Shown here: positions 688 through 28,811 of the stretch, piece by piece | Position numbering within the stretch: position 1 is the first letter of the stretch | Layout of the letters: each line of letters starts with the position of its first letter | NCBI GenBank assembly: GCA_050304755.1 | Contig: JBNLED010000095.1 | Coordinates: 7,635 to 71,634 of the forward strand | Reading direction: 5' to 3' | Origin: Polyangia bacterium | Lineage (GTDB): Bacteria; Myxococcota_A; Polyangia; JAAYKL01 | Length of the DNA stretch: 64,000 nucleotides | Program-made: the position numbers and the translations under genes | Notes under the pieces: model-generated | What the model saw: only the letters and a program-made list of their open reading frames with translations | What the model was told of the DNA's origin: nothing | Database searches by the model: none

Positions 688-852
688 CCCGTGGGCCTCA
701 CGATAGGCCGTTGTCTCGACGATGGACCGCACAGTGTCATCGGTCAGCGGCGGCGCGGCGCAGAATTTCGGCTCCCCGCCGACATCCCGATACACGCCGT
801 CCAGAGCGACTCAGTCCGCCTCGGTACACCGAGGGTTTATCTCTTATCGCAT

Positions 853-2289
853 ATGGGGTACGCTGCCTCTTCCAAGAACGACAGCGTTACCGGCACCCCA
901 TCAGAAAAGGATTTTGTTGATGACGACGAAACGAAGCAGCGAGCTCACCTTGGCGGATCGATTGTCTCGTTTGGATTTGAAAGCGGCGAAGAAATTCCTC
1001 GGGGACGAGGCGGATCGGCTTCTCGCAAAGGGCGGCGCCGAGGAGATCTGTACTCCATCGTGGAGTTCGTTGACGACCGGCGGCTCGGTCCGGCGTTTCA
1101 GTTTTTCAATCGACACCGGGTGGTGGACGAGAAGGGGAAGGTGTTGGGTTTCGAGCGCCTCGATGAGCTGAGGGAAAAGTTGGCGCCTATATTCCTGCGC
1201 AGGACCCGCGCCTCGGTGTTGCAGGATCTGCCCCCGCGAACAACGAACGTCGTTCGCATCTCACCCACGGCGGAACAGAAGGAGCTCCACGACGGTCACA
1301 GGTTGACCGTTCAAACCATCATCAATAAACCCTATCTCACCGAGATGGATATGCTGCGGCTCCAGAAAGCCCTGCTCATGTGCCGTCTGGTTGCCGACAG
1401 CACGAGTCTCGTGGATGCCAAGGGGAAAAAAGGATACTCCAGCAAGTTGGAGCGACTGGAGGAAATCCTCACGGCGCTCGGCGAAGAGGGAGAGCGGAAG
1501 ATCGTCATCTTCTCGGAGTGGACGAAGATGCTGGATCTCATCGAGCCGCTCTTGGAGCGGGCCGGCATGGGATACGTCCGGCTGGACGGCTCGGTGCCCC
1601 AAAAGAAACGGCAGGTGCTCGTCAATCGATTCCAAAGAGACCCCGACACAAAGGTCTTCATCACGACCAACGCGGGCTCCACCGGGCTCAATCTCCAGGC
1701 CGCGGATACGGTCATCAACGTCGACCTTCCGTGGAACCCGGCGGTCCTGGAGCAGCGCATCGGCCGCGCCCATCGCATGGGCCAGAAGCGGCCGGTGCAG
1801 GTCTACCTGCTCGTCACCGAGGAGACCCTGGAGGAGAACCTGCTCGTCACCCTGTCGGCCAAGCACCAACTGGCGTTGGCCGCGTTGGACATGGAATCCG
1901 ATGTGGACGCTGTGGAGATTCAATCCGGTATGGAGGAGCTGAAGCGCCGGTTGGAGCTCCTTCTCGGCGCCGAACCCGAGGCCCCTTCCGATGAGATAGC
2001 CAGAGAACGGGCCGAAGCCGAGGCGGCCGTCCTGACGGAGAGGAAGGAGCGGGTCTCCAGGGCCGGCGGCGCGCTTCTCCAATCGGCCTTTGCGTTCCTA
2101 GGCGAGCTGCTTCCCGAGGCTCCGGAGACCGACGCGACGAGAGCGATGAAAGCGCAGCTCAAAGCAGGGCTCGAGGCGTGCGTCGAAAAAGATCCACAGG
2201 GCCGTCCGCAGCTCACCGTCACTCTGCCGAGCCCGGATGTGCTGGAAACGTTTGCCGAAGCCTTGTCCCGAATGGTCCCTCATGCGTGA
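853..2289 (+). pseudogene. SNF2-family helicase, C-terminal half only (end of SNF2_N plus Helicase_C); N-terminal DEXH ATPase lobe absent, so a truncated gene or remnant
   Basis: LAPIFLRRTRASVLQDLPP is the SNF2_N C-terminal motif. FSEWTKMLDLIEPLL...TNAGSTGLNLQAADTVINVDLPWNPAVLEQRIGRAHRMGQKRPVQVYLLV is the helicase C domain (motifs IV-VI). Only ~165 nt separate it from the upstream gene, no RBS is evident, and no upstream region encodes motifs I-III. The long ORF begins at 691 in frame and an alternative frame (722-1171) overlaps. Confidence 0.55.
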
Positions 2290-11575: not shown

Positions 11576-12058
11576 ATGATAAAAGAGGCATGCGTTCTCA
11601 CATCTGTATTTATACCCATACTATCCATCACCGCCTGCAAGAATACCGCATCCAATGATTCTCCTGAGAAACGGGACCCGAAGCGCTGCGACTTCGTGGA
11701 TATTGGAGAAGCGGCGGACTTTATAAAAACCAAGATCGTGGATGATCGTCTCGTGGTGGCGCATGGCCTGGCGAATCCCCAGGCGTTGATATGGAAGGAT
11801 GACAGCTCCGGCCGGACCTTCTACCTCGCCCGCGTGCTGGGAACGGAAAAGAAGCTCTACTACCTCAAACCGGTGGCGGACGACGAGACCCCCGGCGTCG
11901 CCTCGGAGTTCAAGGGCCACCTCCTCAAATGGAGCCACCTCGACGCCCGACGCAACGCCCTCCTGACCAACGCGCTGGCCACCCAGTACAACGTCAAGAT
12001 CGACGCTGACAAAACCTACATCATCCTCAGCGGGGATAAACCCGACGGTTGTCCCTGA
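11576..12058 (+). CDS. Hypothetical lipoprotein
   Basis: GAGGGG RBS. Signal peptide with lipobox (LSITAC). No recognised domain. Confidence 0.5.
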   Translation: MIKEACVLTSVFIPILSITACKNTASNDSPEKRDPKRCDFVDIGEAADFIKTKIVDDRLVVAHGLANPQALIWKDDSSGRTFYLARVLGTEKKLYYLKPVADDETPGVASEFKGHLLKWSHLDARRNALLTNALATQYNVKIDADKTYIILSGDKPDGCP

Positions 12059-12206: not shown

Positions 12207-15200
12207 CTAGGTCGAGATGGTGATCCCCAAGGTCTCCCGGAGCTTGAAGTACTCCTCTGAGACACTGAAGACTACGAGCTCCTTGATCTTCTCCTTGGGC
12301 GGCATCTCGTCGACTGTAGCGCTCTCCGACTGGACCATCCTGGCGGCGATTTCGAGATCGTTGCACATCAGGAATCCGGCCCGACACCCGGTCAGCTCCA
12401 CGGCGTTGATCCACTTCTTGACGTCGATGTTCTCGCCGGCCTTCAGGAAACGCTTCACGACACTCCCGAGGGCCTCCCGCTCCATGGGCTGCATCCGTCC
12501 CTGGAGCTGCTTGACATACTGGTCCAGGACGCCGGTCCGATCGGCGGGCAGGTTGAAGTCCGGCTTGCCGATCTTGAGCGCCGCGAGGAGCAGCGTCTTG
12601 AGCTCCCCGTGGGTCGGCAGCACCCAGCGGATGTAGTGCTCCGGTCTGTAGTAGTTGAGGTGCTTGGTCACCATGAACAGGAGGTCCTGCGGAGAGTATC
12701 CTGACAACAGGCTCGCACCGCAGACGCTCGCCATCGGTTCCGTGATCGCGAAGTTCAACCCGCCAGCGCTGTCCTCCTGAACGTACAAGTCCGGAGGGAC
12801 TGGGAGGTTCAGGACCTGCGCAGCGTAGAAGAAGGTCTTGGAGAACATCATGGTATCGTTGACCGGTCGCTTCTGCCCCTTCTTCAGACCGAAGGCCTTC
12901 GTGGGCTGCACCTTGTAGGAGCGGACGACATTGGTCACCGCCTCGAGGATCTTCCCGACGAAGATCGACTCGTTCGGATGGAACACATACTTGAACCACT
13001 TCTCATTGTCCAGCCGAGACTGCGCCCGGATCATTCCCTTGGCGCGGTATTGCTCGAAGAACTGCTGCTCGTCGGCGTCCGCCTTTTTGAGGAACGCGAG
13101 GGTCGCGCAGAGACACCACGCTTTGTCATACTGACGGTTGTCGAAGTAGAGCTTGCGCAGCGCCTTGTACGATTCGACCTTGTACGGGTTGTTCTTGATC
13201 ATCCACTGATATTCTTTGACCGCGTCGTCCATGCGGCCCGGCAGCGAGACATAGAGCTCGGCCAGGATCTCGTGCCGTACGACGTTATCGGGATCGAGAT
13301 TGGAGGCCATCTTGAAGGCCTCCGCCGCCGGCTCGAACTGCTGCATGCGCGTCCGATAGATCTCCCCGAGGAAGTGCCACAGGTTGATCTCGAGATCGGG
13401 GCGCCCCGTTCCGGTGATGCGGTGGAGCATCTTCCGGTAGGCCCGCTCCAGGTTCTTCCAGTCCTTGCGCTGCGTGAGGATTCGGTCGATGGCCTCGAAC
13501 GCCTTCAGCTCGGTGATGCTGGCGTCCAGCGAGAGATTGAAGCAGGCCACCGCCTCTTCCGCGTTCTTGATCTCATCGCGATAGATGACCCCCATCGAGT
13601 AGTAGAGCCGTCCGAGCTTCTCCCCGTCCTCCTCCATCTCGGCGACGCGACGGATGATATCCACCACCTTCTGCCACTGTTTGGTGGACTGGTAGAGCGG
13701 GAGCACCTTGTGCAACACCGGCCGGTTGTCCGGATCGATATCGAGGGCTTCGACATAGGCGGAGATGGCCTTCTGCGTGTTGCGGAGCTTCCCCTGCCAG
13801 ATATCCCCTATCTCCACGAGGGTCTCGAACCGCTCCTCTTCGTCGACCGCGTTCAGGAGCTCCTTCTTGAAATGAATCACCTGCTCGAAGTTCTTTCCCG
13901 CGTCATGGAGCTCGATGACCTCCTCGAGGGTCGGCACGTGGCCCGGATCGATCTCCAGCGCCTTGTCGAACATGTTGAGCGCCTTCCGCCGCTCCTTGAC
14001 CTGGGCCTTGATGTGTCCCAACCGATAGAAGATCTCCACGATCTCGGGTTTCCGCTGCTTGTCGCGGTGATGCACCAGCACCATCTGGTAGAACTTGAAC
14101 GCCTTGTCCCAGGTCTCCTTCCTGAAATAGACATCCGCGAGCTTCAGGAGCGTCGGGAGATGCGATGTGTCGGATTCGTATGCCGCCTGATACGCCTTCA
14201 GCGCCTTGTCCAGGTTGCCGACCTTGTCCGCGACGAGCCCGAGCTTGCGTTGCAGAATCTGCGTCTCGCTCGAGGAACGCCGCCCGCCGAGACGCACCAG
14301 CATGTCCAGGAGCGGCTCCGCCTCGGCATACCGCTCTTCCGCGATATAAACATCCACCAGCGGATCCGCAGCGGCCTGGTTGTCGGGATCCGAGGCGAGG
14401 GCCTTCTCGTACCACTCCACCGCGAGCTTCTCCTCACCGAGCTTCCCCGAGTAGAGGGCGCCCAGCTCGTATTGAAGCTTCGAGCGCTTGCGACTGTTAT
14501 CGGTGTACTCCTGTTCCGATTCCAGCGCGCGGGCGCCGGCCACCCAGTCGCCCTCGTCGAGGTATATCTTCCGGAGAGCCTCGAGGGATTGGAGATGCCC
14601 CGGCTCCACGTCCAGCGCGGACCGGAAGTGCTCGACGGCGATCTCCCGGTTCATCAGGTTCTCTTCGTTGATTTTGCCGAGCCGATAGTAGAGGTCGATC
14701 TTTCGGTCGGGATCGTCCACCGTCTGGGCCAGCCGCTCGAGGGTGTCGTGGGCGGCTCCCCAGTCCTCGTTCTGGGCCTGCAGCTGGGCCAGGTTGTCCA
14801 AGGCGTCGATGTGGTCTGGATCGATATCCAGGATCTCCATATACATCTCTATCGCCTTGTCGGCATCCTTGAGCTCGGACGCCCACACGTCACCCATCTG
14901 CTCGTAGAATCCGATCCGATCCATCCGGTCCGGGACGACCTCGATATGGCGCTCGAGGGTCGCGATGAGATCCTGCCATCTCCCGGTCTGTTTATAGATG
15001 CGCTCCAGAGCGTCAAGGGATTCGATCTGCGCGGGGTCAATCTCCAGGATCTCCTCGTAGCGTCCCGCCGCGCGGTCCGGCTTCAGGAACTCCTTCTCGA
15101 GCATCTCCGCGATGCGGCTCAAGAGATCGATCCGCTCCCTTTCGCTGGAGGCGTACTCGAGCTGGATCTCGAGGACATCCATCAGGTCCTGCCAGCGCTC

Positions 15201-18200
15201 GAGCTTATCATACAGGCGCTCCAACCCCTTCAAGGCGGCGACATGGCTCTCCTCGATATCGAGCGCCTTGCGGTATTCGTCGACCGCGGCCTGCGCCTCG
15301 TCAAGGTTGTCCTCGTAAATCTCTCCGATGCGGATGTGGGTGGAGATAATCTCGTCGGGCTCTTCGAGCACCTCGATCTTGCGCCGGAGCACGGTGATGA
15401 GCTCCCGCCAGTTCTCCGACGCGCCGTAGATGCGCTCCAACGCATCGATGGCCTTCTCCAATCCGGGATCCAGCGCGACCGCCTGCTGGAACGCCGTCCG
15501 CGCCTCGGGGATATCCCCCAGGTACTCCTCGTAAACCTCTCCGAGCTCCACCAGCAGGTCTTTTCTCTTCTCGTCTTCCTTCTCGAAGTCGACGGCGCGC
15601 TTCAGCACCTCGACGTACTCGTCCCACTGCTTGTTGGCGCGATAGAGGTGGCCGGTCAGCTGAAGGGCGGTGGCGTTCTCGCTGTCGAGCTGCAACACCC
15701 GCTGATAGCACGCGAGGGCATACTCCGGATTGTCCAGCTTGTCCGCGTACCATTTTCCGATCTTGAGGCAGAGGCTGATCTGGACATCCCGCTTCTCCAC
15801 GGCCGCGAGCACCTGGTTCGCCGCCTGGAGCAGCTCCTCCCACCGCCCGGTAACGGACGCCAGGCGCTCCAGATAGGCGGCGGTATCGTCGTTGACATAG
15901 TCCTCCTGGAAGGCCCGCAGCATGACGACGAACGCGTTGTCCGGCTGCTCCAGCTTCTCTTCGAAGATGTCGGCGACCTTTCTATAGATATCGATCCGTT
16001 GCTCGATATCCTCTATCATTCCCAACCGTCCATAGTAGTACTGATTCAGCTCGTCCCAGTTCTCCTCCTCGGTCTCTATCTCCACGAGCTTCTGGAACGC
16101 GAGGTCGTGGAGCTGATCGACCTCCAGGATACCGATGTACGCCTGCTTGGCCCGCAGCGGCTCGCCGATCTGCTCCTCGAAAACGCTCGCCTGATAGAGG
16201 AGGGTTTCGATGCGTTTCTCCCCTTCCAGGATCTGGGCTTTCTCGCGGAGCAGATCCACCTGATCCTCCCACATCTCCTGGTCCGTGTAGAGCTTCTCCA
16301 GGGCCTCATAGATCTTGAGATCCGAGGGATCGACGTCATAGGCATTCCGCCAGGAGTCGATGGCTTCCAGCGGCTGGTCGAGGATATCGGAGAAGATGGC
16401 GCCCTGTTTGGCGTAGTAGCCCTTGAGCTCTTCTTCTTCGAAGACGCTGGTGCCCACGGTGATGATGGTATCCAAGGTGTTCAGCAGCTGATCCCAGTCC
16501 TTGTTGGCCTCGTGAATCTGGGCGATCGCCTTCAGCGCGGGCATGTTCTCCGGCTCGATGCTGAGCACGTTCTCCCAGTTCTCCAGCGCGTTCTTGTCGC
16601 GCTGCAGGCACTCTCCCCAAACCAGGCCGAGCTGGCTGTAGATCCGCACGCGGGTCTCGTCGTCCTCGGCGACCGTCACCGCCCGATCCAGGATCTCCAC
16701 CAGATCGCTCCAGTTCTCCTGCCGGGCGTGGAGCTCCGCCAGGGATTCGAGCGCGAAGGTGTCCTCCCCCCGAAGCTCCAACACCTTGTTCCAAAGCTCG
16801 GTGGACTGGGGGATGTCGTTCAGGCAGTCCGCCGAGATGGTGGCCAACTTCGAGTAGAGATCCGCGAGCTCCTGCTCGTCATCGGTGCCGTCCTTCATAT
16901 GAGAGTAAATCTCGTAGAGCTCTGACCATGCCTCCTGATCCGCGTAGACGATTTCGAGATGCTCGAGCGCCTCCGAATTGTGAGGATCATATTCATCGAT
17001 GACCCTGTGGAAACACTCCCTGGCCTTCTCGGCATCCCCAATCTCCGTGCTGTAAACGGCCCCCAGCCGGTTGGTGTAGGCGATCTTCTCCTCCACATCC
17101 GGAACAATCTCCGCCAGCTTGAACAGGATACCGGCCAGCCGCTCCCACTCCATGTACTGCGTATAAATCCTGTCGAGCGCCGTGAGCACGTCCAGATCAT
17201 CGCCGCCGTGATCCAGACAGCCGCGATACGCCTGCTCGGCCCGCGCGATATCGCTGAGATGCTCCTCCGCGACAACCGCCAGACGCTTCGCGCAGAGTAT
17301 CTTTATCCCGGGGTCCTCATTCCTGAGGAACAGATCCTGATAGAGATCCGCGAGCTCCACCCACCCGTCGACCGCGCTCGCCAGGCGCTCCACCTCTTCG
17401 CCGGAGCGCTCGTTGAGGGGATCCGCAGAAAAGGCCTTGCAATACCAGTTGAACGCCTCCACCGCGTCCAGCGCGCGCTCCTCCTGGATCTCCGCCATCC
17501 GGTGCATGAGGGACACCATATCGTGGGTGTCCTCGATGTCCTCGAGTTGCGCCTCGTAGAGCCTGACGAGCTTCTCCCATTCTGAGTGCATCCGATAGAT
17601 GGGCTCGAGCACACCAGCAATATCTGTCCGGCGCCCCCCCTCCGCGAAGAGAAACTCCAGCGCGGAAGAGGACGACTCGTGCGCCGGATCCGCGGCGAGG
17701 ATGTCCCGATAGGTCTCGATGGCCTTGTCGATCTGTTGGAGCTCCTGCTGGTAGACCTGCCCCATCCGGAACTGCAGCTCCAGCCCCTCCTCGGGATCCT
17801 CCGCGATGGCGGCCTCCTTCTCGAGGATCTCCGTCAAATCGCCCCAGCGCTCCTGTATATGGAAGAGCCGATCCAGGCACTGCAGGGCCTCGCGGTTCTG
17901 GTCGTCGAACTCCAGCACCTTGCGATAGCGCAGGATCGCCTCGTCCGAGTCGTTCAGCTTCTCTTCATAGATCACACCGGCCTTCAGCCCGATGAGGATC
18001 GCCTGTTCGGCGTCCACGATTTGCTCCAGCTCCTTGTCCATCAGCATCGCCAGATCCTTCCAGCGATCCGTCTGGGAGGCCAGCTCCTCGAGCTTCTCGA
18101 GGGTCCGCTCGTTCGTGCGATCCTCGGCTAGGGCGCGGGCGTAGACGTCGAAGGCTTCTTCGGGGACATCCAGATACAGATCGCTCTCCATCATCTCGGC

Positions 18201-21200
18201 GATCCGGTGGAGGAGCTCCACCTTATCGATCTCGGACTCGGCGTGCCTCAGCTTGACATCGAGGACCTCGATCAGCTTACGCCACTCCCCCATGTCATGG
18301 TAGATGGGCTCGAGCACCTCGGCGGCGAGCATCGCGCCCTCGTCTGTATGGATGAGCTCCTCCAGAATCGCCAGGGAGGGCTCGTGATCCGGCGAGAGCG
18401 TCAGAATCTCCCTGAAATAGTCCACTGCGCGGGAGATGTCGTCGAGGTGTCTTACGTAGAGCTCCCCGACCCTGTACTGGAAGGAGATGGCCTCGTCGGG
18501 ATCTCCCGAGAGCTCTATCCGCCGCTCGAGGATGGAGAGGAGATCGTGCCACTCCTCCTTTTGTGTATAGAGGCAGTCGAGGCGATGCACCGACTGTACA
18601 TCATCCGGATCGAACTCCAACACCCGCTGGTAGGTGGTAATCGCCTTGTCGATGTCCCCCACCTCCTGCTCGTACACCGAGCCGAGGACATAGAGGACCT
18701 CCCGTTTTTCCTCGGAGGTTTCGACGAGATCGACCTTCTTGTTGTAGATTTCTTGCAGATCGTCCCAACGCTCCAGCTTGAGATACAGCGCTTCGATCTG
18801 CGTGATCGCCTGGAGATCGTCCTCGTCTATCTCGAGGATCCGGCGGTAGACCTCTATCGCCTTGTCGATATTCCCCATGTACTCTTCATAGATGCGACTC
18901 GCCTTGAAGAGCATATCCTTCTGTTCTTCAATATCCGCAACTATATCCACCTTCTTCTGATAAATGATCGCGAGATCTTCATAGTTCTCGGTTATCTGGT
19001 AGGCCCCCTCGAGCGCGGTCGCCGCCTCCAGATGCATGGGATCGACCTCGAGCACGGCGCGATAGTGCTTGATTGCGTTGTCCATGTCCTGCAGGTTGTC
19101 CTCGAATACGCGGGCGATCTTGAGATGGTAGTACGCCTTCAAATCGTAGGTGTCGATGGTGTCGACGATCCGAGCGTACAGCGCCGCCAGATCATCATAG
19201 AGGACCAGGATCCGGGCCAGTCGTTCCAGCTCTTCCTGGGTGCTGTCCTCCGCCGGATCAATCGAGAGGGCGCGGCCGAAGGTCGTGAAGGCCCTCTCCG
19301 GATCGTCCCCCTCGGTCTCCCACAGGGCGGCCACCTGATGGAGCAGCTCCACCTTTCGGCCGGCGGAATCCTCGGTGTCCACCATAATCTCGTAGACGTT
19401 GACGAGCTTCTCCCATATCCCCAGCGCTTCATAGATCGGCTGGAGGATATCGGCGACATCGCGACGGAACTCTAGATTCTCGATGATCCCCTCGAGGGCC
19501 TCGATGGCCTTCTCGTTGGAGGCGTCCACGTTGAGCACCTCTCGATAGATCTCTATCGCCGCGCCGATCTGCCCCAGCTGTTTCTCGTTCAGCTCGGCGA
19601 GGCGGAGGTTCAGGGCGATGGTCTCTTCGGCGTCCTCCCCCATGCTGAGCTGGGCCTGCAGGTTGTCGGCGAGATCGGTCCAGCGCTCGAGCTGTCGGAA
19701 GAGCTTGTCCAGCTCCTTCAAGGCCCCCATGTTGGCCGGATCGAACCCCAGGACCTCCTTCAGGCAGGTAATGGCGTCCTCCGGTCGGTCGAGCATCTCC
19801 TCGAAGATCATCGACATCTGGAGATAAATCTGCTCCTTTGCCTCAATATCATCGGTGATCTCCACTTTCGTCTTGTAAATTTCAATCAGTTCATCCCAGC
19901 GCTCGGTGCGATTGTAAATCCCCTCCAGGGCCGCGACCGACTCGCTGTTCTGGGGATCCGCCGCCATCGCCTGGTTGTAGGCGTAGACCGCCTTGTCCAC
20001 ATCGTCCAGCTGTGTCTCGTATATCCGGGCGGCGCGAATCCATAGATCCTTCGCCGTCTGAAGATCGCGGGTCCCCTGCCCTCCTTCCGCCAGCAGATCC
20101 ACCAGCTCGCTCCAGGAATCGAGGATATTCGTAATCTCCTCGAGGCGCTCGAGGGCCTCCGGCTCCGTCGGTCGCTGCTTGAAGGCTCGGGAGTACGCTA
20201 CGAACGCTCTTTCCGGAGACATCAGATTCTCCGAATACAGCGCCCCCTCCCGAATCAGGAGCTCATATCGCTCTAACTCGTCCGTCGCGTGGCGGACCAG
20301 GATCTCCAGAGAACCGACGAGCTTCTCCCACTCCTCGTGTTCCTCGTAGTACAGGGAGAGGACCTTGGCGGCTTCCGCCTGTTGCCCCTCGTCGTCGAGC
20401 ATCGCCTCGAGGGCGCTGACCGCATCGGCGTACTCCGGATCGACCTCCAGGATCTCACGATAGCACTCCATCGCCTTCACGCGGTCATTCAGATGTTGCT
20501 CGGAGACCTGCCCCTGGCGGAACTTGAGCTCGAGCTCGAGCTCCGGTTCGACCATCCCCAGATCCAGCTGTCGCCGGATGACGTCCGACAGATCCGTCCA
20601 CCGCTCCTCGACCAGGTACAGCCGGTCCAGGGAGGACAGCGAGCGGGGGTCATCGCCCGCCATCTCGATGAGCTGATTCAAGACGGTGATGGCCTTCTCG
20701 TTGTCCTTGACCTCTTCTTCCCAGAGCAGCGCCTGATTGTACAGGATCTCCTGCCGCTCGGTGTCATCCTCGGCCATCTCCAACCGACGGGCGTAGATGT
20801 CGAGCAACTCCTCATACCGCCCCATATGGGCGTAGAGCTTCTCGAGCGCAGCCACGGCGCGTTGATTCTTCGGATCCAGGGTCAGGATCTCATCGTAGTA
20901 CTTCAGCGCGTCGTCCCGCTGATTCAGCTCGTCATCGAGAATCCGCGCGATCTTCAGCTTGAGATTGATGCTCGCCGCGTCATCGGCGTCCTCCAGGAGC
21001 GAGCGATAGGTTTCAACGACGGTCTCCCACTCCCCGGTCTTGCCCGCGAGTCGTTCCATGTCCTCACTCGACTGCTCGTCCTCGGGGCTGAGTTCGAACA
21101 CCGAGAGGAACCCCTTGAACGCCCGCCCGGCGTCCCCGATCTCCTCCTCTGCGAGGGTCGCGATGCGCCGGGTCAGCTCTATTTTATCTACGATATCTTC

Positions 21201-22619
21201 GAGGTGATGAAGGCGGACCTCCAGGACATCAGCGAGCTTGGCCGGCTCTTTGCCTTCCTCCAATATGGGGATGTAGAGCTCCGCCGCGTCCAGGTTCTCG
21301 GGATCCAGGGACAGGATGGTCTCGTAGGATGACGCCGCGCGATCGGTGCGGGACTTCTTCTCGCTCCAGAGCTCCGCCACCTTGAAGTACATACTAATTT
21401 TGGTGGCGACCTCCGTGGTGTCCCGATCCGCCTCCCGCTCCAGAATCCGGATGAACTCATCCCACTTTCCGCTAGTGTCGTAGAACGCCTCAAGGTCGTC
21501 CCACGCCTGGGCCGCGAGATAACGCTTCTTGAGCTGCTCCTGCGCCCGTCTGTCGTTCGGGTTCATCTCGAGCAGGGTCTTCCACGCCTCTATCGCCTTG
21601 GCGTTGTCCCCGATGCGGTCACCATAGACCTGCCCCAGCTTCTGGAGCATCTGTGTCTGTTGCGCCGGGTCGACAACGCTCTCCAGCTGCCTGGACAGCA
21701 CCACCGCCAGCTTCTCCCACTCCTTGGCGCGCTCATAGAGGCTGCTCAGCTCGTTCAGGGCACTTTCGTTCTCGGGATCCACATTGAGGACCGCCTCCCA
21801 GCGCTCAATGCAGATATTGGGCCGCTTGAGACGATCGGACGCCAACTGGGCGATCTGCAGATACCCATCAATCCTGGCGGATTCATCATCGAGCTGCTCG
21901 ATCTCTTTCTCCATCACGCCGATGAGCTTCTCCCAATCCCTCCGCTTCTCATACATCCCCTTGAGGAACTCGAGCGCCTCTGAATGATAAGGATCGACCG
22001 CCAACACCTCCTCAAAGGCCTTGATGGTCTCGGCCTGATTCGAGAAACGGTTGAGGAAGAGCTTGGCCACCACCAACCAGACCCCGACCTTCTCCTCAGG
22101 ATCCGTAACCGCCGCCCCCTTGAGCTTCATCATCTTGACGAGATCCGGCCACCGCTCCATCGATTCGTATTTGTCGATTGCGGCGTTGATCGCGGGCAGG
22201 TAGTCCGATTTGAATTTGAGGATGGCCTGATAGGTATTGACCACCATCACATCCTGTTTCATGCGCTCATCATAAAGCGACGCCAGGGTCATCAGCACGT
22301 TGATCTTGCGGGGGCTGTCCTTGAGAGTATTGCCGTTCTTCTTCAGGAAATCCGCGAGCTGCGGCCATTTTCCCGTGTTCTCGAAAAGGCGCATCAGGGC
22401 GTCGACCACCTCCTGATGCCCGGGCGAGACCGACCATGCTTCCTGCCACGCGGCGATCCCCGCGTCGTCCCCCTCCATCTCAGCCGCGGTGGCGTTGTCG
22501 AACGCCTCTTTCATCTCAGGGGTCAACTCTTCCTCTTCCTGGGAAGATGCTGCGGCCAGTTCCTCTTCCTCCGCTATTACTTCTCGTCCATCCTCGCGCG
22601 ATTCGCCGTCAATCGTCAT
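12207..22619 (-). CDS. Giant tetratricopeptide-repeat protein (~3,470 aa; the ORF extends to 22733 = 3,508 aa), TPR array throughout plus a ~330-aa C-terminal non-TPR domain
   Basis: Single uninterrupted ORF of 10.5 kb. Recurrent 34-aa TPR signatures (W-LG-Y-A-F-A-P patterns, e.g. AIEAWKTLLEMNPNDRRAQEQLKKRY, ALKYYDEILTLDPKNQRAVAALEKLY) across >90 repeats. Start preferred at ATG 22619 (GAGGAGA RBS 6 nt upstream) over 22652 or 22733. Confidence 0.85.
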   Translation of the reverse strand: MTIDGESREDGREVIAEEEELAAASSQEEEELTPEMKEAFDNATAAEMEGDDAGIAAWQEAWSVSPGHQEVVDALMRLFENTGKWPQLADFLKKNGNTLKDSPRKINVLMTLASLYDERMKQDVMVVNTYQAILKFKSDYLPAINAAIDKYESMERWPDLVKMMKLKGAAVTDPEEKVGVWLVVAKLFLNRFSNQAETIKAFEEVLAVDPYHSEALEFLKGMYEKRRDWEKLIGVMEKEIEQLDDESARIDGYLQIAQLASDRLKRPNICIERWEAVLNVDPENESALNELSSLYERAKEWEKLAVVLSRQLESVVDPAQQTQMLQKLGQVYGDRIGDNAKAIEAWKTLLEMNPNDRRAQEQLKKRYLAAQAWDDLEAFYDTSGKWDEFIRILEREADRDTTEVATKISMYFKVAELWSEKKSRTDRAASSYETILSLDPENLDAAELYIPILEEGKEPAKLADVLEVRLHHLEDIVDKIELTRRIATLAEEEIGDAGRAFKGFLSVFELSPEDEQSSEDMERLAGKTGEWETVVETYRSLLEDADDAASINLKLKIARILDDELNQRDDALKYYDEILTLDPKNQRAVAALEKLYAHMGRYEELLDIYARRLEMAEDDTERQEILYNQALLWEEEVKDNEKAITVLNQLIEMAGDDPRSLSSLDRLYLVEERWTDLSDVIRRQLDLGMVEPELELELKFRQGQVSEQHLNDRVKAMECYREILEVDPEYADAVSALEAMLDDEGQQAEAAKVLSLYYEEHEEWEKLVGSLEILVRHATDELERYELLIREGALYSENLMSPERAFVAYSRAFKQRPTEPEALERLEEITNILDSWSELVDLLAEGGQGTRDLQTAKDLWIRAARIYETQLDDVDKAVYAYNQAMAADPQNSESVAALEGIYNRTERWDELIEIYKTKVEITDDIEAKEQIYLQMSMIFEEMLDRPEDAITCLKEVLGFDPANMGALKELDKLFRQLERWTDLADNLQAQLSMGEDAEETIALNLRLAELNEKQLGQIGAAIEIYREVLNVDASNEKAIEALEGIIENLEFRRDVADILQPIYEALGIWEKLVNVYEIMVDTEDSAGRKVELLHQVAALWETEGDDPERAFTTFGRALSIDPAEDSTQEELERLARILVLYDDLAALYARIVDTIDTYDLKAYYHLKIARVFEDNLQDMDNAIKHYRAVLEVDPMHLEAATALEGAYQITENYEDLAIIYQKKVDIVADIEEQKDMLFKASRIYEEYMGNIDKAIEVYRRILEIDEDDLQAITQIEALYLKLERWDDLQEIYNKKVDLVETSEEKREVLYVLGSVYEQEVGDIDKAITTYQRVLEFDPDDVQSVHRLDCLYTQKEEWHDLLSILERRIELSGDPDEAISFQYRVGELYVRHLDDISRAVDYFREILTLSPDHEPSLAILEELIHTDEGAMLAAEVLEPIYHDMGEWRKLIEVLDVKLRHAESEIDKVELLHRIAEMMESDLYLDVPEEAFDVYARALAEDRTNERTLEKLEELASQTDRWKDLAMLMDKELEQIVDAEQAILIGLKAGVIYEEKLNDSDEAILRYRKVLEFDDQNREALQCLDRLFHIQERWGDLTEILEKEAAIAEDPEEGLELQFRMGQVYQQELQQIDKAIETYRDILAADPAHESSSSALEFLFAEGGRRTDIAGVLEPIYRMHSEWEKLVRLYEAQLEDIEDTHDMVSLMHRMAEIQEERALDAVEAFNWYCKAFSADPLNERSGEEVERLASAVDGWVELADLYQDLFLRNEDPGIKILCAKRLAVVAEEHLSDIARAEQAYRGCLDHGGDDLDVLTALDRIYTQYMEWERLAGILFKLAEIVPDVEEKIAYTNRLGAVYSTEIGDAEKARECFHRVIDEYDPHNSEALEHLEIVYADQEAWSELYEIYSHMKDGTDDEQELADLYSKLATISADCLNDIPQSTELWNKVLELRGEDTFALESLAELHARQENWSDLVEILDRAVTVAEDDETRVRIYSQLGLVWGECLQRDKNALENWENVLSIEPENMPALKAIAQIHEANKDWDQLLNTLDTIITVGTSVFEEEELKGYYAKQGAIFSDILDQPLEAIDSWRNAYDVDPSDLKIYEALEKLYTDQEMWEDQVDLLREKAQILEGEKRIETLLYQASVFEEQIGEPLRAKQAYIGILEVDQLHDLAFQKLVEIETEEENWDELNQYYYGRLGMIEDIEQRIDIYRKVADIFEEKLEQPDNAFVVMLRAFQEDYVNDDTAAYLERLASVTGRWEELLQAANQVLAAVEKRDVQISLCLKIGKWYADKLDNPEYALACYQRVLQLDSENATALQLTGHLYRANKQWDEYVEVLKRAVDFEKEDEKRKDLLVELGEVYEEYLGDIPEARTAFQQAVALDPGLEKAIDALERIYGASENWRELITVLRRKIEVLEEPDEIISTHIRIGEIYEDNLDEAQAAVDEYRKALDIEESHVAALKGLERLYDKLERWQDLMDVLEIQLEYASSERERIDLLSRIAEMLEKEFLKPDRAAGRYEEILEIDPAQIESLDALERIYKQTGRWQDLIATLERHIEVVPDRMDRIGFYEQMGDVWASELKDADKAIEMYMEILDIDPDHIDALDNLAQLQAQNEDWGAAHDTLERLAQTVDDPDRKIDLYYRLGKINEENLMNREIAVEHFRSALDVEPGHLQSLEALRKIYLDEGDWVAGARALESEQEYTDNSRKRSKLQYELGALYSGKLGEEKLAVEWYEKALASDPDNQAAADPLVDVYIAEERYAEAEPLLDMLVRLGGRRSSSETQILQRKLGLVADKVGNLDKALKAYQAAYESDTSHLPTLLKLADVYFRKETWDKAFKFYQMVLVHHRDKQRKPEIVEIFYRLGHIKAQVKERRKALNMFDKALEIDPGHVPTLEEVIELHDAGKNFEQVIHFKKELLNAVDEEERFETLVEIGDIWQGKLRNTQKAISAYVEALDIDPDNRPVLHKVLPLYQSTKQWQKVVDIIRRVAEMEEDGEKLGRLYYSMGVIYRDEIKNAEEAVACFNLSLDASITELKAFEAIDRILTQRKDWKNLERAYRKMLHRITGTGRPDLEINLWHFLGEIYRTRMQQFEPAAEAFKMASNLDPDNVVRHEILAELYVSLPGRMDDAVKEYQWMIKNNPYKVESYKALRKLYFDNRQYDKAWCLCATLAFLKKADADEQQFFEQYRAKGMIRAQSRLDNEKWFKYVFHPNESIFVGKILEAVTNVVRSYKVQPTKAFGLKKGQKRPVNDTMMFSKTFFYAAQVLNLPVPPDLYVQEDSAGGLNFAITEPMASVCGASLLSGYSPQDLLFMVTKHLNYYRPEHYIRWVLPTHGELKTLLLAALKIGKPDFNLPADRTGVLDQYVKQLQGRMQPMEREALGSVVKRFLKAGENIDVKKWINAVELTGCRAGFLMCNDLEIAARMVQSESATVDEMPPKEKIKELVVFSVSEEYFKLRETLGITIST

Positions 22620-22996
22620 CTCATTCTCCTCGAAGAGTTTCCCCGCCAACATGTCTGTCTGATTTGTTGTGGAGAAGCTGATAATACAAATTGGTATGCC
22701 TGCTTGGCGTGCCAAAGGACAGTTTTGGCTCACCAGTCATCCTGCATTCCCTCGATGGTGCGCCTCCCTGGAAACCGGGGAGATCTCTGGTAATGGATTC
22801 AATCTGCCGACCGTGCTCCCGCTCGCTATACAAATACATCGAAAAAAACGGGCTCAATTCTTTCCAGTATGTAGCTCCTGGATCTCTCATTATCCGGCCT
22901 GTGTTTTCCAAATACTTGAAACCGCTTGAATAAATCGCCTTCCCTACTTGCCTCGGGGTCTACCGAAGCGACGAAGCGATTTCATACCTGATACTA

Positions 22997-23878
22997 TCAT
23001 TTATATGGCGTGCCGTTTTCGATCTCCGCCAAACGGGCCGACGCCGCGGCCAAATAGTCCGGTCTGGTCTTCTGGCTCGCGCTCTGCATGAACTTGTTGA
23101 GCCAGATCTTGGCATTCTCCGGATTGGTGTAGGAGTAGGTCCACCCCAGGCTGAACATGGCGTCTTCCATGTTCGGCTTGATCTCCATGGCCTGCCGGAA
23201 CTCCGCGACCGCCGCCTCGTACTCCTTCTTCTCCGCGAGCACCGTGCCCAGACGGTGGTGCAGCACCGCGAGCTCATCTCCCCTGCCCTCGAGGGCCTTG
23301 ATGCCCTCCCGGAACACCTGCTCCGCCTGCGCCAGGAAATGGAAATCGGCATAGAGGCCGCCGAGCTCCCGATAGGCCTCGAAGAACCGCGGATTCTTCA
23401 TGATTGTGTCGGTGTATTTCTGGAGCGCGTTCTGGGGGTCGTCCATTTTCTCGAAAACGACCCCGAGACGGTAGTGGGCTTTGAAGAGTGTATCGTCGAG
23501 CTCAATGGCCTTCACCAAGGCGCTCGCGGCCTGCTCCGGTTTCCCGGCCCATTGATACACCTCCCCGAGCTGGTAGTGCCAGAGGGCGACGCTGCCGTCC
23601 AGGGAGATGGCCTTGGAAAGATGGCGGGCGGCCTGGTCATACTCCTTGGTCTCGATGTACACCATCGCTAGATTGTGGTGAGCCTTCTCGTTTTCCGGAT
23701 CCAGGCTCACGGCCTTGCTGCAGTCGCGAATGGCCTGAGGATATAGCTGACGCCGATGGTACTCGACGCACTTGTTCATCATCTCCACCGACTGAACATG
23801 CTCGCGGCTGCACTTCGCTCCGGAAAGAATGAGAAGTGTTCCAGCTGCACAAATTGCCAAAATGACTTTCCTGCCCAT
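22997..23878 (-). CDS. TPR-repeat secreted protein or lipoprotein
   Basis: AGGAGA RBS. Signal peptide MGRKVILAICAAGTLLILSGAKC followed by ~7 TPR units (AHHNLAMVYIETKEYDQAARHLSKAISLD...). Confidence 0.7.
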   Translation of the reverse strand: MGRKVILAICAAGTLLILSGAKCSREHVQSVEMMNKCVEYHRRQLYPQAIRDCSKAVSLDPENEKAHHNLAMVYIETKEYDQAARHLSKAISLDGSVALWHYQLGEVYQWAGKPEQAASALVKAIELDDTLFKAHYRLGVVFEKMDDPQNALQKYTDTIMKNPRFFEAYRELGGLYADFHFLAQAEQVFREGIKALEGRGDELAVLHHRLGTVLAEKKEYEAAVAEFRQAMEIKPNMEDAMFSLGWTYSYTNPENAKIWLNKFMQSASQKTRPDYLAAASARLAEIENGTPYK

Positions 23879-24015
23879 CTTTTTTTCTCCTAGTTTGAGT
23901 TCAAAAATCAAAAGATTTTATAAAGACGTATTTAAGATGTAAAGCCCTTAAACGAGATCAATATAGCAAAAACACAGCGTTGACCAAATTTAGTTTTCGA
24001 GGATCGACAAGCCTG

Positions 24016-24753
24016 TCAACTACCCAATTTTATGATTTTTCCCGACTTATCGTGTTTATACCCCTTGGGCAATATCGCATCGACCTTCTTCTTGAAGCCC
24101 GTAGTCGGCCACTCCAGACGAGAAAACGCATCCACCACCTCGTTCCGCACGCGGATACTCTCATCCTCACACATCGTCTTCAGCAGCGGCTCCCTCGCCA
24201 CGTCCATCCCCTGCTTGGTCAGCGCAACCACGGTCTGATATCGCACCGTTTCGTCCACATCCTCCAGGAACCGAAGGAGCGACTTGGCCACATCGATATG
24301 CTCTATTTCTGCGAGCGCCATGACGGTTTGTAGCTTACGATCCGGATTTTTTTCATATTCGGTATCGAAATCTTCCAGAATCTCCAGGAGCTCCGTCTTG
24401 TACTCCTCGTCTGAAACAATGGCTTTCAAGGTGCGTAGAACCCAGCTGACGCTCTCCAGACTTCTCAGAGCGCGCTTGATCTGAGGCAACGCATCCCGGC
24501 CAATATCGATAATGGCGTCGTAAACCCACTCCTTTTCCCGCTCGTCTTCCATGCTCGGCTCGGCCACCACCGTGAACCGCTTGAGCAGACCGGCGATCGC
24601 CGTATCATTCCCCGACTTGGCGGCCTGGATGACATTCTGAAGCGAAATCTGGCGATAGTCTTTGGGTTTGAATTTGTTGTTTGCGCTTCGAATATCGCGG
24701 TCCAAACGATTCCTACGCCGTTTGTCCGCTGATAGAAAATCAAAAAATCCCAT
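24016..24753 (-). CDS. HEAT-repeat (PBS-lyase-like) protein
   Basis: Repeated DxxxxVRxxAxxAL motifs (DVDETVRYQTVVALTK, DESIRVRNEVVDAFSRL), 245 aa, all alpha-helical. Confidence 0.6.
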   Translation of the reverse strand: MGFFDFLSADKRRRNRLDRDIRSANNKFKPKDYRQISLQNVIQAAKSGNDTAIAGLLKRFTVVAEPSMEDEREKEWVYDAIIDIGRDALPQIKRALRSLESVSWVLRTLKAIVSDEEYKTELLEILEDFDTEYEKNPDRKLQTVMALAEIEHIDVAKSLLRFLEDVDETVRYQTVVALTKQGMDVAREPLLKTMCEDESIRVRNEVVDAFSRLEWPTTGFKKKVDAILPKGYKHDKSGKIIKLGS

Positions 24754-25105: not shown

Positions 25106-26335
25106 TTAGACATCAGGGTCTTCGTTTGCGGAGCCCTCTTCTTCGTCCTCTGTCAACGCACCAATCATTTGATTGATACGGAAGCTCAGCCCTCCGACTT
25201 CGGAGGATTTCACGTCAAAACGGTACTGGTATTCACCATTGATGACCTTCAACACCCCCTCCTCAATCTCGATGATGGGCTTCATGAAGTGGTTGGCGAG
25301 GAGCATTCCGCTGACAAAGACAATCAGCAATGTGATGGCCATCGCAACGAGAATACTCTTTATTCCCCGGAGGTTTTGGAAAGATTTGTCGACGGAGGCC
25401 ATCATCAGGGTCGCCACCCTATCCTTGGTCTCGGCGTTGGTCATCGGAACGATCTGGGCCAGGTAGGCCCGATCCTCCACAACAAGATCAAAGACATCGG
25501 ATATCCTTCCCGCTTGGAGCGATTTATCCATTGATTTTATAATGTTCGCTTTGGTGAGGGTTTTCTCCAGACTCTCCCTCGCGGTCTCGGTTCCGAGGGA
25601 TGTGCTGTAGACGGATTCCCCCTTCAGCACCGCGACCTCCATACTGGTCAACTTTGAATGTTTTGTCGCAGTGCCGTCCGAGATATCAAACCCCACCACG
25701 AGCGTCCCAGCGATATCATCTCCGAGCCAGATCGGCGCCGCCGCCAGCTCGAGCAAATCCGTGTTCATCAACTGACAATACTCTGAATTCTTTTTCTTCT
25801 TGCTGAACGGGGAGCTATCGTTGGACCATATCGCATAGGCCGCCTGGCCGTCCAGCGCCCGGGTCACGACGGACATGCCGTCAGCGACATTCTTTTTCAC
25901 CGGACACGCGTTGGGGGTCGTGTTGCGCGCCAAAGCCACGCCCCGCCGGTCGGTAATCAGCACCAAGTCCGGCCGCTTATGATATTTGCTCTGCCATTGA
26001 TCTGCATACTTTTCTATGGCTTGAACACATTTCTTAAACCATATTCTATGAATTTTCGCGTCGACCTGCGCTGAGGTCTGCCCCTCGTCCCGGTCCACCT
26101 CTACCTTTTCGAAAACGGTCACCATATCCCGGGACATGGCCTGGGCTCTGACATTGTTCAACAATTCGAACCCTCGAAGACCTTCAGATCTCGCAAAGAG
26201 CGCGGTGATGACCTGAAGATTCTCCCGGAGATCTTCTTTGGCCTTCTTCTGCAAGCGGTTGTCGAGATAGAAATAGCTCGCCACACCAAATAACAACACC
26301 GCAATAAAGTTGGGTAGGATTATTTTTACACGCAT
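25106..26335 (-). CDS. Membrane sensor protein: TM, ~280-aa periplasmic (Cache-like) domain, TM, HAMP domain, with no output domain
   Basis: AAGGAG RBS. TM1 ILPNFIAVLLFGVASYFYL, TM2 ILVAMAITLLIVFVSGMLLANHF, HAMP (MKPIIEIEEGVLKVINGEYQYRFDVKSSEVGGLSFRINQMIGAL), then an acidic tail and stop. The ORF ends at the edge of repeat locus B. Confidence 0.6.
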   Translation of the reverse strand: MRVKIILPNFIAVLLFGVASYFYLDNRLQKKAKEDLRENLQVITALFARSEGLRGFELLNNVRAQAMSRDMVTVFEKVEVDRDEGQTSAQVDAKIHRIWFKKCVQAIEKYADQWQSKYHKRPDLVLITDRRGVALARNTTPNACPVKKNVADGMSVVTRALDGQAAYAIWSNDSSPFSKKKKNSEYCQLMNTDLLELAAAPIWLGDDIAGTLVVGFDISDGTATKHSKLTSMEVAVLKGESVYSTSLGTETARESLEKTLTKANIIKSMDKSLQAGRISDVFDLVVEDRAYLAQIVPMTNAETKDRVATLMMASVDKSFQNLRGIKSILVAMAITLLIVFVSGMLLANHFMKPIIEIEEGVLKVINGEYQYRFDVKSSEVGGLSFRINQMIGALTEDEEEGSANEDPDV

Positions 26336-26634: not shown

Positions 26635-27195
26635 ATGTTGAGATTTTTCCTCTCCAAGCTTCGCGAGAGCCCCGGGCCACTAAAAGAGGCCCGGCTCGTC
26701 GCTTGTGATCTAGCAGAAGAAGTATTGGATATCGCCAAATATTACGTCAAACGAATTCGCCAGGGAGAAACAGAACAAGAGGGTTACAGACAGACGGTGG
26801 AAACCCCGCCGGAATCTGTGGGCCCTCCGGTTTCGCCGGCCGCACCTACACAGGAAGTCACTCCCCCCCCCCAGGAACGAACCCTGGAAATTTCCGAAGA
26901 ACTGGCCTCCGTGTTGGATATCCCGACCAATAAGAGAAAACAGGAGTTCAAGGTGTTGGCTATCCTGTGGGATGCCAATAAACGAAATATGGGCGTCCTC
27001 TCCGCGAAAGAGCTGTCTGAGCACGGTGCCAAGCTCGGGATCGTGATTCGCCACGAAAACGTACGCAAAATCATTCGAATGCGGCTGGAAAACTACGTCA
27101 GGACCATTCAGAACAGGGTGGGAAGAATTTCAGTTTACCACTATCATCTCACCCCCTCCGGCGAGCAGTATTTTAAAGATAAATACTTAAAATGA
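26635..27195 (+). CDS. Hypothetical protein with C-terminal winged-helix-like domain
   Basis: GGGAGG RBS 5 nt upstream. Pro-rich linker. The C-terminal KQEFKVLAILWDANKRNMGVLSAKELSEHGAKLGIVIRHENVRKIIRMRLENYVRTIQ resembles a wHTH. Lies directly upstream of the HD-GYP response regulator. Confidence 0.4.
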   Translation: MLRFFLSKLRESPGPLKEARLVACDLAEEVLDIAKYYVKRIRQGETEQEGYRQTVETPPESVGPPVSPAAPTQEVTPPPQERTLEISEELASVLDIPTNKRKQEFKVLAILWDANKRNMGVLSAKELSEHGAKLGIVIRHENVRKIIRMRLENYVRTIQNRVGRISVYHYHLTPSGEQYFKDKYLK

Positions 27196-27317: not shown

Positions 27318-28811
27318 ATGGCCCGAGACTCATCCCTCACGGAACCTTCCCCCCGTGTTCTCGTCGTCGATGACGAAAAAGTCATCAGAGAAATCCTCGC
27401 TGATTTTCTCTCTCTCGAGGGTTTCACGGTCGCCACCGCGCCGGATGCGAATTCCGCGCTTGAACGGCTGGGGCAGGAGAACTTCGATATGGTGATCTCC
27501 GACCTCAAGATGCCGAACATGAGCGGCCTGGAGCTCCTCGAGCAGATCAAGCTGAACCACGAAAATGTCCTGATTGTCATCATGACCGGGTTCGGAACCG
27601 TAGAGACCGCTATCGAAGCGATGAAGAAGGGAGCGTACGACTATATCCTCAAACCCTTTAACGTCGAGGAGGTCATCCATATCGTCCACCGGGGATTGGA
27701 AACCCAGCGGCTCATCTCCGAGAACATCCGCCTTCGGGAGATTGTATCCCTCCAGGAGCTCTCCCTCGAGCTGCAGGCGACCCTGTCTCTGAAGGAGGTC
27801 ATCGACTCCACGCTGGCCAAGTGTATCTCCAGCGTCGGATGCGCGCTCGCGACCCTGTATCTACTGAATGAGAAGACCAAGAAGTTCGAGGAGGGGGGAT
27901 TTCTGGTACACCCGGATGCGCCCCCCGGCTCCAGCGCGGGTCAGCTCCGTCTGGACAGAGTGCTGGACGAGCTGAAGGCGGGGGCTTTCGTGTTGGTCCA
28001 TGGGGAAATGGCGGCGGCCGAATATTTCATGAAGCCGCCGCAGAACCTGGTCTCTTTGATGTGTATCCCCCTGGTGGTCCGCCAGAACCAGATCGGCATC
28101 TTGACGCTATACTCCTTTATCTACGACATGCGGTTCACCGAGGGGCAGCGAAAGATGTTCTCGATGCTGGCCTCCCGCGCGGCGGCGGCGATCGACAACG
28201 CCCTCCTCTTCAACAACCTTCAGCAGACCTTCAGACAGACCATCCAGGGCTTGGCGCGCGCTATCGAGGCCATGGACAAGTACACCGCCGGTCATTCGGA
28301 TCGGGTGATGGTGTACGCCCGAATCACCGCCGAGCAGCTCGGCGAGCCGGCGGATCAAATCGAGCTGGTGGTCCAGGCAGGGGCTCTTCACGATATCGGA
28401 AAGCTGGGCTGTCACGCCAATTTGAACAAGGCCGGAAAGCTCACCAGCGAGGAGTACGGGATTTTCAAGGAGCATCCGAGCTACGGAAAGGAGATTATCA
28501 AGCCGATTTCCTTCTTGCACGCCATCGTCCCGGGGGTCCAGTTCCACCACGAAAGATGGGACGGCAAGGGGTACCCCCAGGGGCTCGCCGGCAAAGAGAT
28601 CCCCAAGATCGCCCGAATCCTGGCCGTGGCGGATGCCTACGACGCCATGACCTCGAACCGGGCCTATCGACAGGCGCTGACGCACAATGTCGCCATCCAG
28701 GAGATACGGCGCTGCTCCGGGAGCCAGTTCGATCCCGAGGTCGTGGAGGCCTTTGTCCTCGCCATCGAAAAGTATCGCGCCAAGCGGGGACACATCAGCC
28801 CCGAAGACTAA
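27318..28811 (+). CDS. Response regulator with receiver, GAF-like and HD-GYP (c-di-GMP phosphodiesterase) domains, RpfG-like
   Basis: REC: VLVVDDEKVIREILADFL...DMVISDLKMPNMSGLELL...YDYILKPF. HD-GYP: HSDRVMVYA...ALHDIGKL...HHERWDGKGYPQGLAG...AVADAYDAMTSNRAYR. Confidence 0.85.
   Translation: MARDSSLTEPSPRVLVVDDEKVIREILADFLSLEGFTVATAPDANSALERLGQENFDMVISDLKMPNMSGLELLEQIKLNHENVLIVIMTGFGTVETAIEAMKKGAYDYILKPFNVEEVIHIVHRGLETQRLISENIRLREIVSLQELSLELQATLSLKEVIDSTLAKCISSVGCALATLYLLNEKTKKFEEGGFLVHPDAPPGSSAGQLRLDRVLDELKAGAFVLVHGEMAAAEYFMKPPQNLVSLMCIPLVVRQNQIGILTLYSFIYDMRFTEGQRKMFSMLASRAAAAIDNALLFNNLQQTFRQTIQGLARAIEAMDKYTAGHSDRVMVYARITAEQLGEPADQIELVVQAGALHDIGKLGCHANLNKAGKLTSEEYGIFKEHPSYGKEIIKPISFLHAIVPGVQFHHERWDGKGYPQGLAGKEIPKIARILAVADAYDAMTSNRAYRQALTHNVAIQEIRRCSGSQFDPEVVEAFVLAIEKYRAKRGHISPED

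Follow-up and report, generated by a model that had tools for sequence, protein, structure and literature searches.

A giant tetratricopeptide repeat protein of a Polyangia bacterium is a likely orthologue of the gliding protein GltI (AgmK)

The Agl-Glt gliding machinery of Myxococcus xanthus includes the giant protein GltI, also known as AgmK and encoded by MXAN_4863, a cytoplasmic protein of 3,822 amino acids (aa) made of tetratricopeptide repeats (TPRs) (PMC3169522). In M. xanthus, the glt genes are dispersed among the clusters G1, G2, and M1, and the order of the G1 cluster is gltD-gltE-gltF-gltG-(gltH)-gltI (PMC3169522). In Sorangium cellulosum, the genes sce2915-2918 are followed by sce2920 and sce2921 (1,774 and 2,081 aa), which are listed as homologues of MXAN_4863 (PMC3169522, Table S3). 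The gltI mutants are non-motile, GltI fused to yellow fluorescent protein (GltI-YFP) forms fixed focal-adhesion clusters in an MglA-dependent manner and, in turn, the AglZ and MglA clusters need GltI (PMC4508894). The M. xanthus protein also has a large, mainly helical non-TPR C-terminal domain (PMC11761067). Here, we describe the gene of a giant TPR protein found on a stretch of 64,000 nucleotides (hereafter, the window) from a Polyangia bacterium (assembly GCA_050304755.1, contig JBNLED010000095.1), and we compare it with this system.

We consider it likely that the giant gene of the window encodes an orthologue of GltI, because its product is collinear over its full length with giant proteins encoded right after gltD-E-F-G-like genes. 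Three of these giants, P0144 (locus L081), P0266 (L083), and P0256 (L087/L088), align with the window protein in single collinear high-scoring segment pairs (HSPs), with 33-39% identity over 3,355-3,505 aa, and each of them is directly preceded by five genes on the same strand and in a common order. The five genes encode a TPR protein of ~1,300 aa (1,307 in L081, 1,283 in L083, and at least 1,034 in L087, where the gene begins at the contig end), another TPR protein, shorter (456-493 aa), a product of 87-114 aa, an FHA protein (684-771 aa), and, next to the giant, a TPR protein of ~300 aa. For the neighbours in L081 and L083, the only two clusters run, the best NCBIfam matches were GltE, CglF/GltF, and GltG, and the GltG-like protein of L083 matched GltG over its full length (E 2e-111). 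The FHA proteins of these two clusters carry an AgmX/PglI C-terminal domain as well. An FHA protein also directly precedes a fourth orthologue, P0188. Coherently with the description of GltI, the window protein is a soluble protein of more than 3,300 aa without signal peptide or transmembrane segments, it consists of TPRs over nearly its full length followed by a helical C-terminal domain, and it is orthologous to genes in the gltI position.

The collinearity extends to the other giants compared. Among the 22 giants aligned with the window protein, 20 were covered by a single HSP over 3,337-3,508 residues, with 31-62% identity, while for the two most distant ones (P0149 and P0162) the top HSP spanned 2,981 and 2,532 residues, with 29-32% identity. 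Conversely, the HSPs out of register reached just 22-24% identity. Since the identity in register is far above the identity out of register, each repeat unit has its own conserved identity. This position-specific conservation of the units marks an old orthologous family, constrained along its whole length.

The main difference within the family is located at the N-terminus. Most orthologues have a TPR-like head of 400-700 aa with an acidic linker rich in Ala, Pro, and Glu; the head was compared in P0117, P0118, P0123, P0139, P0160, P0256, and P0266, and it is absent from the window protein and from L001. A profile search with the head returned four irrelevant or fragmentary matches, among listed proteins of at most 681 aa. 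In the lineage of the window, the gene has lost the N-terminal head of most orthologues and sits apart from the other glt genes.

The giant open reading frame (ORF) is uninterrupted and lies on the minus strand; counted from the GTG at 22733, it comprises 3,508 codons. An earlier reading made on the letters alone (hereafter, the sequence-only reading) had described a single ORF of 10.5 kb, and this ORF is uninterrupted at exactly 12207-22733, but on the minus strand. The start codon is probably the ATG at 22619, as a GAGGAG lies 6 nt before it and the orthologues start at the equivalent position: the close ones begin at a matching 'M-T-x-x-x', preceded by an in-frame stop. With this start, the product would have 3,470 aa, and the first 38 codons of the ORF would be untranslated.

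The Pfam and NCBIfam scans gave TPR matches spread over the whole giant protein, with the exception of the last 364 aa, and found no family other than those of TPR type. The autocorrelation of the protein body (BLOSUM) showed a sharp dominant peak at lag 72, with harmonics at 144 and 216. The side peaks at 89, 161, 233, 305, and 377 are due to a few variant units of 89 residues. A hidden Markov model (HMM) of the unit, built from twelve 72-aa units with tryptophans exactly 72 residues apart, produced 43 back-to-back matches, ~41 of which full length, covering residues ~85 to ~3200. In the array, double-hairpin TPR-like units of 72 residues follow one another in tandem; there are about 42 of them, corresponding to about 85-87 hairpins. 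The sequence-only reading had proposed an all-TPR giant of more than 90 units: the protein is TPR-like nearly throughout, but the count obtained with the unit HMM is ~85-87 hairpins.

The protein is extremely acidic, with 734 Asp and Glu residues against 408 Lys and Arg residues over the 3,508-codon ORF and a net charge of approximately -324 for the 3,470-aa product, and the orthologues are similar. No transmembrane segment was found in it (the maximum Kyte-Doolittle mean over 19 residues is 1.32) and its N-terminus is an acidic, low-complexity leader instead of a hydrophobic signal sequence; thus, the giant protein is cytoplasmic. The mean identity to 19 orthologues, computed per 72-residue block, is fairly even along the array (0.27-0.46), reaches its highest values in the last canonical TPRs ahead of the C-terminal domain (0.44-0.57), ranges from 0.39 to 0.53 inside the C-terminal domain, and is merely 0.15-0.16 in the first 144 residues.

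The 89-residue variant units contain an additional helix and are marked by the motif 'ALE..L ... LEPIY....W.KL'. The three clear 'LEPIY....W.KL' motifs, at 19404-19448, 18273-18317, and 17568-17612 of the minus strand, keep the same alignment positions in 19/19 orthologues aligned. The LEPIY variant units could be candidate repeated docking sites, in analogy to M. xanthus GltI, on which six GltG-FHA sites have been predicted. Weaker LEPIY copies are also present near residues ~455 and ~757 of the giant protein.

The last 364 aa gave zero matches in Pfam or NCBIfam. The AlphaFold2 model of this region, computed on an alignment of 59 sequences, had a predicted local distance difference test (pLDDT) value of 95.2 and a predicted template modelling score (pTM) of 0.92. 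In this model, the first ~70 aa, KVESYKALRKLYFDNRQYDKAWCLCATLAFLKK included, are still TPR-like helical hairpins, and the true non-TPR domain is therefore of ~291 aa (pLDDT 91.3 when modelled alone). Helices make up most of its fold, which also includes a single three-stranded sheet and, after it, a long helix. An HMM of 26 trimmed family members retrieved, among the PDB sequences, only spurious matches to designed TIM-barrels, and the Foldseek search of the domain against PDB returned no significant structural neighbour.

A genome scan with the C-terminal domain identified at least 421 loci encoding it. The locus statistics cover the best 80 of these at least 421 loci, which are all from Polyangia, mostly metagenome-assembled genomes (MAGs), and include Labilithrix luteola DSM 27648. 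The exhaustive profile search retrieved at least 3,574 cluster representatives with the domain, 1,049 of which at E <= 1e-30. The full-length giants listed measure 3,329-4,166 aa and each carries the domain at its extreme C-terminus, and many of the shorter matches are probably gene fragments from short contigs. In the source annotations, the proteins with the domain are merely named 'TPR repeat protein' or 'hypothetical'; the cluster names came from Polyangia MAGs, with no Myxococcus-labelled member among them.

The domain also ends other proteins, namely Ser/Thr-kinase + TPR + domain proteins of 1,772-1,780 aa (e.g., P0392, L091:10001-15340, 1,779 aa) and TPR + domain proteins of ~1,330-1,390 aa (e.g., P0175, L092:10001-14137, 1,378 aa), and it is found as a tandem double domain without TPRs in proteins of ~700-740 aa. 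P0161, P0199, and P0210 are listed together with P0392 and P0175 as other architectures of the domain. The neighbourhoods of the two shorter forms examined, L091 and L092, are not Glt clusters. The domain is an undescribed Myxococcota module of wider use, not one restricted to GltI.

These results bear on what the sequence-only reading had said of the tail. The TPR matches and the library scans bear out a giant scaffold protein made of TPRs and ending in a distinct domain, and a tail of no recognisable family agrees with the lack of Pfam, NCBIfam, and PDB sequence matches. The length of ~330 aa without TPR periodicity needs correction, because the stretch taken there as the boundary ('KVESYKAL...FLKK') still belongs to the helical hairpins and the non-TPR domain spans ~291 aa, and the adjective "unique" has to be dropped for a domain contained in at least 3,574 protein clusters. 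The same reading had left room for the tail matching a well-known family: no such match emerged at the level of the domain, but the whole protein joins a known and experimentally studied family.

A very long repetitive ORF in what is likely a metagenomic assembly could be an artefact, derived from collapsed or chimeric repeats, or a pseudogene, and the giant ORF is indeed interrupted in five related MAG loci (L049, L058, L059, L062, and L073). On the other hand, no DNA tandem repeats were found in the giant gene and no copy of a dispersed repeat exceeds 57 nt in length or 85% identity, which makes a repeat-collapse mis-assembly implausible; moreover, the protein repeat units are merely ~22-24% identical out of register, and the units of the window protein correspond one by one, in the same order, to those of dozens of orthologues assembled independently. 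In nearly all the related loci with enough flank, the ORF closed by the domain is intact; its length is 3,346-3,512 aa, or exceeds 3,696 aa where it runs beyond the end of the fetched DNA. Collapse or pseudogenization, which the sequence-only reading had wanted excluded, is at the sequence level very unlikely, given the lack of DNA tandem repeats and the intact relatives, and overall we assign to an artefact or a pseudogene practically no chance of being the right explanation. As regards the five interrupted loci, their last segment measures just 408-2,270 aa; 4/5 bear 'MFD' isolate labels and were assumed to be long-read MAGs, and L073 is a short-read-style assembly. Their interruptions are probably frameshift errors, less probably those of real pseudogenes. 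Another alternative regards the C-terminal domain, which could be an active M48-type zinc metalloprotease, making the giant a BepA-like TPR-protease. Indeed, the M48 zincins Ste24p and ZMPSTE24 lead the Foldseek list of the trimmed model (E 0.07-0.2, probability 0.69-0.85, template modelling score (TM-score) 0.28-0.35), ahead of MATCAP and BlaR1, BepA and ZMPSTE24 are among the non-significant matches of the longer (364-aa) model, the topology is of the sheet-then-helix type, and a later motif of the domain, 'VELTGCRAG', resembles the 'E..ADR.G' of M48. However, all the structural matches are non-significant, and no HExxH is present in the domain: the helix after the sheet reads 'KHLNYYRPEH' (family consensus 'HL.YYR.EH'), with 'KHLNYY' at the equivalent helix. 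Besides the negative HMM search against PDB, the hhalign comparison of the domain profile with a BepA-type M48 profile (seeded with an E. coli BepA M48 sequence validated against PDB 6sar) was not significant, with E 0.35, and the aligned stretch was the post-sheet helix only. P0270, labelled 'predicted Zn-dependent protease', was also tried as M48 seed and was found to be pure TPR. An active protease is extremely unlikely on these grounds, and the domain is possibly a non-catalytic docking or capping module, which might have a degenerate zincin fold.

The gene neighbourhood raises two further alternatives. The TPR and HEAT genes that the sequence-only reading had placed upstream of the giant, on the same strand, are both present as described, and it had joined the three in a solenoid module: a TPR lipoprotein, a HEAT protein, and the giant TPR protein would build one very large scaffold. 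The three genes are close together, and the ~300-aa TPR gene adjoins the giant in almost every lineage examined, lying directly upstream of it wherever the flank is visible, with identity down to 36% (the exception is L086, where an FHA gene takes this place). Nevertheless, a signal peptide is present in the ~300-aa TPR protein and a canonical lipobox (AFGC, LAGC) in its orthologues (the window copy has the non-canonical 'LSGAKC'). The protein is therefore exported, and an exported protein cannot form a single continuous scaffold with a cytoplasmic giant devoid of signal peptide and transmembrane segments. Furthermore, the HEAT gene neighbours the giant in the closest clade only (L084/L085), and none of the six other neighbourhoods examined has it. 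With one partner in another compartment and the other confined to the closest clade, the module does not stand, and we consider the three-protein scaffold highly unlikely. The context also enters among the points that weigh against the identification of the giant as GltI. No other glt or agl gene was found in the window (~40 ORFs, NCBIfam or Pfam), with no matches to GltD, E, G, J or AglR, Q, S among the ORFs scanned, and in this clade the giant gene has as neighbours the genes of a HEAT protein and of a HAMP-only membrane protein. In addition, the link to MXAN_4863 rests on synteny and on the published homologue table (PMC3169522), and the gliding role and the Agl-Glt machine are carried over to the window organism from M. 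xanthus by analogy. The scores of the L081 and L083 neighbours are all below the NCBI equivalog cut-offs, as expected for a class other than that of M. xanthus. Lastly, the C-terminal domain occurs in non-GltI architectures too, so that it does not define GltI by itself. The window clade may then have re-purposed a GltI-derived scaffold, which would be uncoupled from the glt cluster and would work with the HEAT protein and the HAMP-only sensor in a non-gliding role, e.g., envelope signalling or polarity. Beyond the lack of glt and agl genes among the ORFs scanned, this explanation is favoured by the loss of the N-terminal head in the window protein and L001, and by the conservation in the closest clade, next to rho, rpmE, DUF1385, and prfA, of one gene set, which encodes the 408/409-aa membrane protein, the HEAT protein, the TPR protein of ~300 aa, and the giant. 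Conversely, every repeat position and the C-terminal domain are conserved with the Glt-linked orthologues, and P0117, which is 62% identical to the window protein and lies in the same gene context, retains the head. Moreover, the glt genes are split even in M. xanthus (G1, G2, and M1; PMC3169522), and the missing linkage is thus weak evidence. Overall, we regard re-purposing as unlikely, if clearly less so than the other alternatives, and we retain the identification of the giant as a likely GltI orthologue.

If the window protein works as proposed for GltI in M. xanthus, its TPR superhelix, ~1,000 Å long, would lie under the inner membrane. There, it would act as a multivalent platform gathering several motor/transducer units through their cytoplasmic domains, such as the FHA domain of GltG, and it would couple the Agl-Glt units to AglZ, MglA-GTP, and MreB. 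We infer that, in this platform, the LEPIY variant units may provide the repeated docking sites and the C-terminal domain may serve for docking or capping, without catalysis. A bolder combination can be put forward only as a speculative and rather improbable proposal: the domain would be an undescribed, Myxococcota-wide 'TPR-array cap', a catalytically dead M48/gluzincin descendant acting as a clamp for docking peptides or proteins and, in GltI, as the anchor of the focal-adhesion platform, with the LEPIY units docking the GltG FHA domains. In that case, the version of the window, head-less and unlinked to glt genes, would be a natural minimal GltI.

The positions of the giant gene, of its parts, and of its upstream neighbours are reported in Table 1. 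About 380 bp of non-coding DNA separate the giant gene from the ~300-aa TPR gene. The HEAT gene and the gene of the 409-aa protein lie beside the giant in L084/L085 only, and this closest clade also shares the downstream rho-rpmE-DUF1385-prfA block. The 409-aa protein has two transmembrane segments, a periplasmic part of ~300 aa, and a HAMP-like cytoplasmic tail without output domain; it had no Pfam match, and NCBIfam matched it weakly to histidine kinases, in their HAMP region.

Table 1. Coordinates of the giant gene, its regions, and its upstream neighbours in the window
Feature	Position	Strand	Basis
gltI/agmK-like coding sequence (likely orthologue), 3,470 aa + stop	12207..22619	-	ORF, start site, orthologue collinearity
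C-terminal non-TPR domain, 291 aa	12210..13082	-	No library family; AlphaFold2 models; profile search
TPR-like unit array (~42 units; few 89-residue variants interspersed)	13083..22481	-	Pfam/NCBIfam, autocorrelation, HMM
Region with the three clearest 89-residue variant units	17568..19448	-	Motif conservation, autocorrelation side peaks
Acidic low-complexity N-terminal leader, ~46 aa	22482..22619	-	Orthologue comparison
Shine-Dalgarno-like GAGGAG, 6 nt upstream of ATG 22619	22626..22631	-	Read directly from the sequence
Exported TPR protein, ~293 aa, conserved partner	22997..23878 (also given as 22997-23911)	-	TPR matches; adjacency; N-terminus
HEAT-repeat protein, 245 aa, clade-specific	24016..24753	-	HEAT_2 match; same gene in L084/L085 only
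Membrane protein with two transmembrane segments, 409 aa, HAMP-like C-terminus, clade-specific	25106..26335	-	Weak NCBIfam; 408-aa orthologue in L084/L085

Between rho and the giant gene, on the strand opposite to the latter, an ORF of 160 aa without family match is present (11576-12058, plus strand); it is shared by L001-L013 with 30-42% identity and is therefore probably a genuine small gene. On the other side, divergent from the giant-gene block, three plus-strand genes encode a 186-aa protein without family match (26635-27195), a response regulator-GAF-HD(GYP-type) protein (27318-28811), and a HAMP histidine kinase (28821-30371), and the same trio is carried by L084. Elsewhere in the window, we observed the C-terminal part of a Snf2-type helicase (691-2289, plus strand), a leucine-rich-repeat protein (45554-47242, minus strand), a protein with an N-terminal region similar to Ser-Asp repeats, matching MSCRAMM Sdr repeats (52905-54569, plus strand), and a coenzyme A (CoA)-transferase fused to a Pat-like acetyltransferase (58030-61077, plus strand).

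Within the known GltI/AgmK family, the window gene is an ordinary orthologue and no new system. Among the large components of the Agl-Glt machine, GltI is the least understood, and the way in which it organises motors has been addressed only by AlphaFold-based guesses. The family is widespread in Polyangia, its ~42 units are conserved in a position-specific way, and its tail domain has neither a library family nor a significant neighbour among solved structures; the main value of this analysis lies in the C-terminal domain, conserved but unclassified, and in the position-specific architecture of the repeats. Together, the C-terminal domain, the LEPIY variant units, and the N-terminal head (dispensable) make up a concrete map for mutagenesis. 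As regards annotation, thousands of metagenomic fragments now called 'hypothetical' or 'TPR repeat protein' could be brought under a named family.

Compared with the described systems, the kinase, TPR, and tandem-domain proteins share with the window giant the same ~290-aa domain, C-terminal in the forms containing TPRs, but they are much shorter. BepA (YfgC), among the M48 zincins (Ste24p/ZMPSTE24, HtpX), likewise combines a TPR region with a sheet-plus-helices domain of ~230 aa. Nevertheless, BepA is periplasmic and catalytically active, with an N-terminal M48 domain and an intact HExxH, whereas the window protein is cytoplasmic, has its domain at the C-terminus, and shows no HExxH and no sequence-profile similarity.

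Within the same class, Polyangia, the genes sce2920/sce2921 of S. cellulosum So ce56 adjoin sce2914-2918 (gltC, D, E, F, G), with the gene order seen in L081, L083, and L087. They are annotated as two genes and are probably one split gene, with a combined size similar to that of the 3,810-3,939-aa orthologues. From taxonomy, size, and synteny, we infer that they belong to the family of the window protein.

With respect to M. xanthus gltI, the window gene differs in not being beside gltG, gltH, or gltJ, and its product lacks the 400-700-aa N-terminal head of most Polyangia orthologues. The ~300-aa exported TPR gene is not listed in the M. xanthus G1 cluster, where gltI is preceded by gltH (MXAN_4866) and by the doubtful ORFs MXAN_4864/4865 (PMC3169522). 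By description, the two proteins are alike: both are giant (3,822 aa in M. xanthus and 3,470 aa in the window) and without signal peptide, and both have TPRs along almost all of the chain and a large helical domain at the C-terminus (PMC11761067, PMC4508894). Coherently, the orthologues of the window protein hold the gltI position, behind gltD-E-F-G-like genes.

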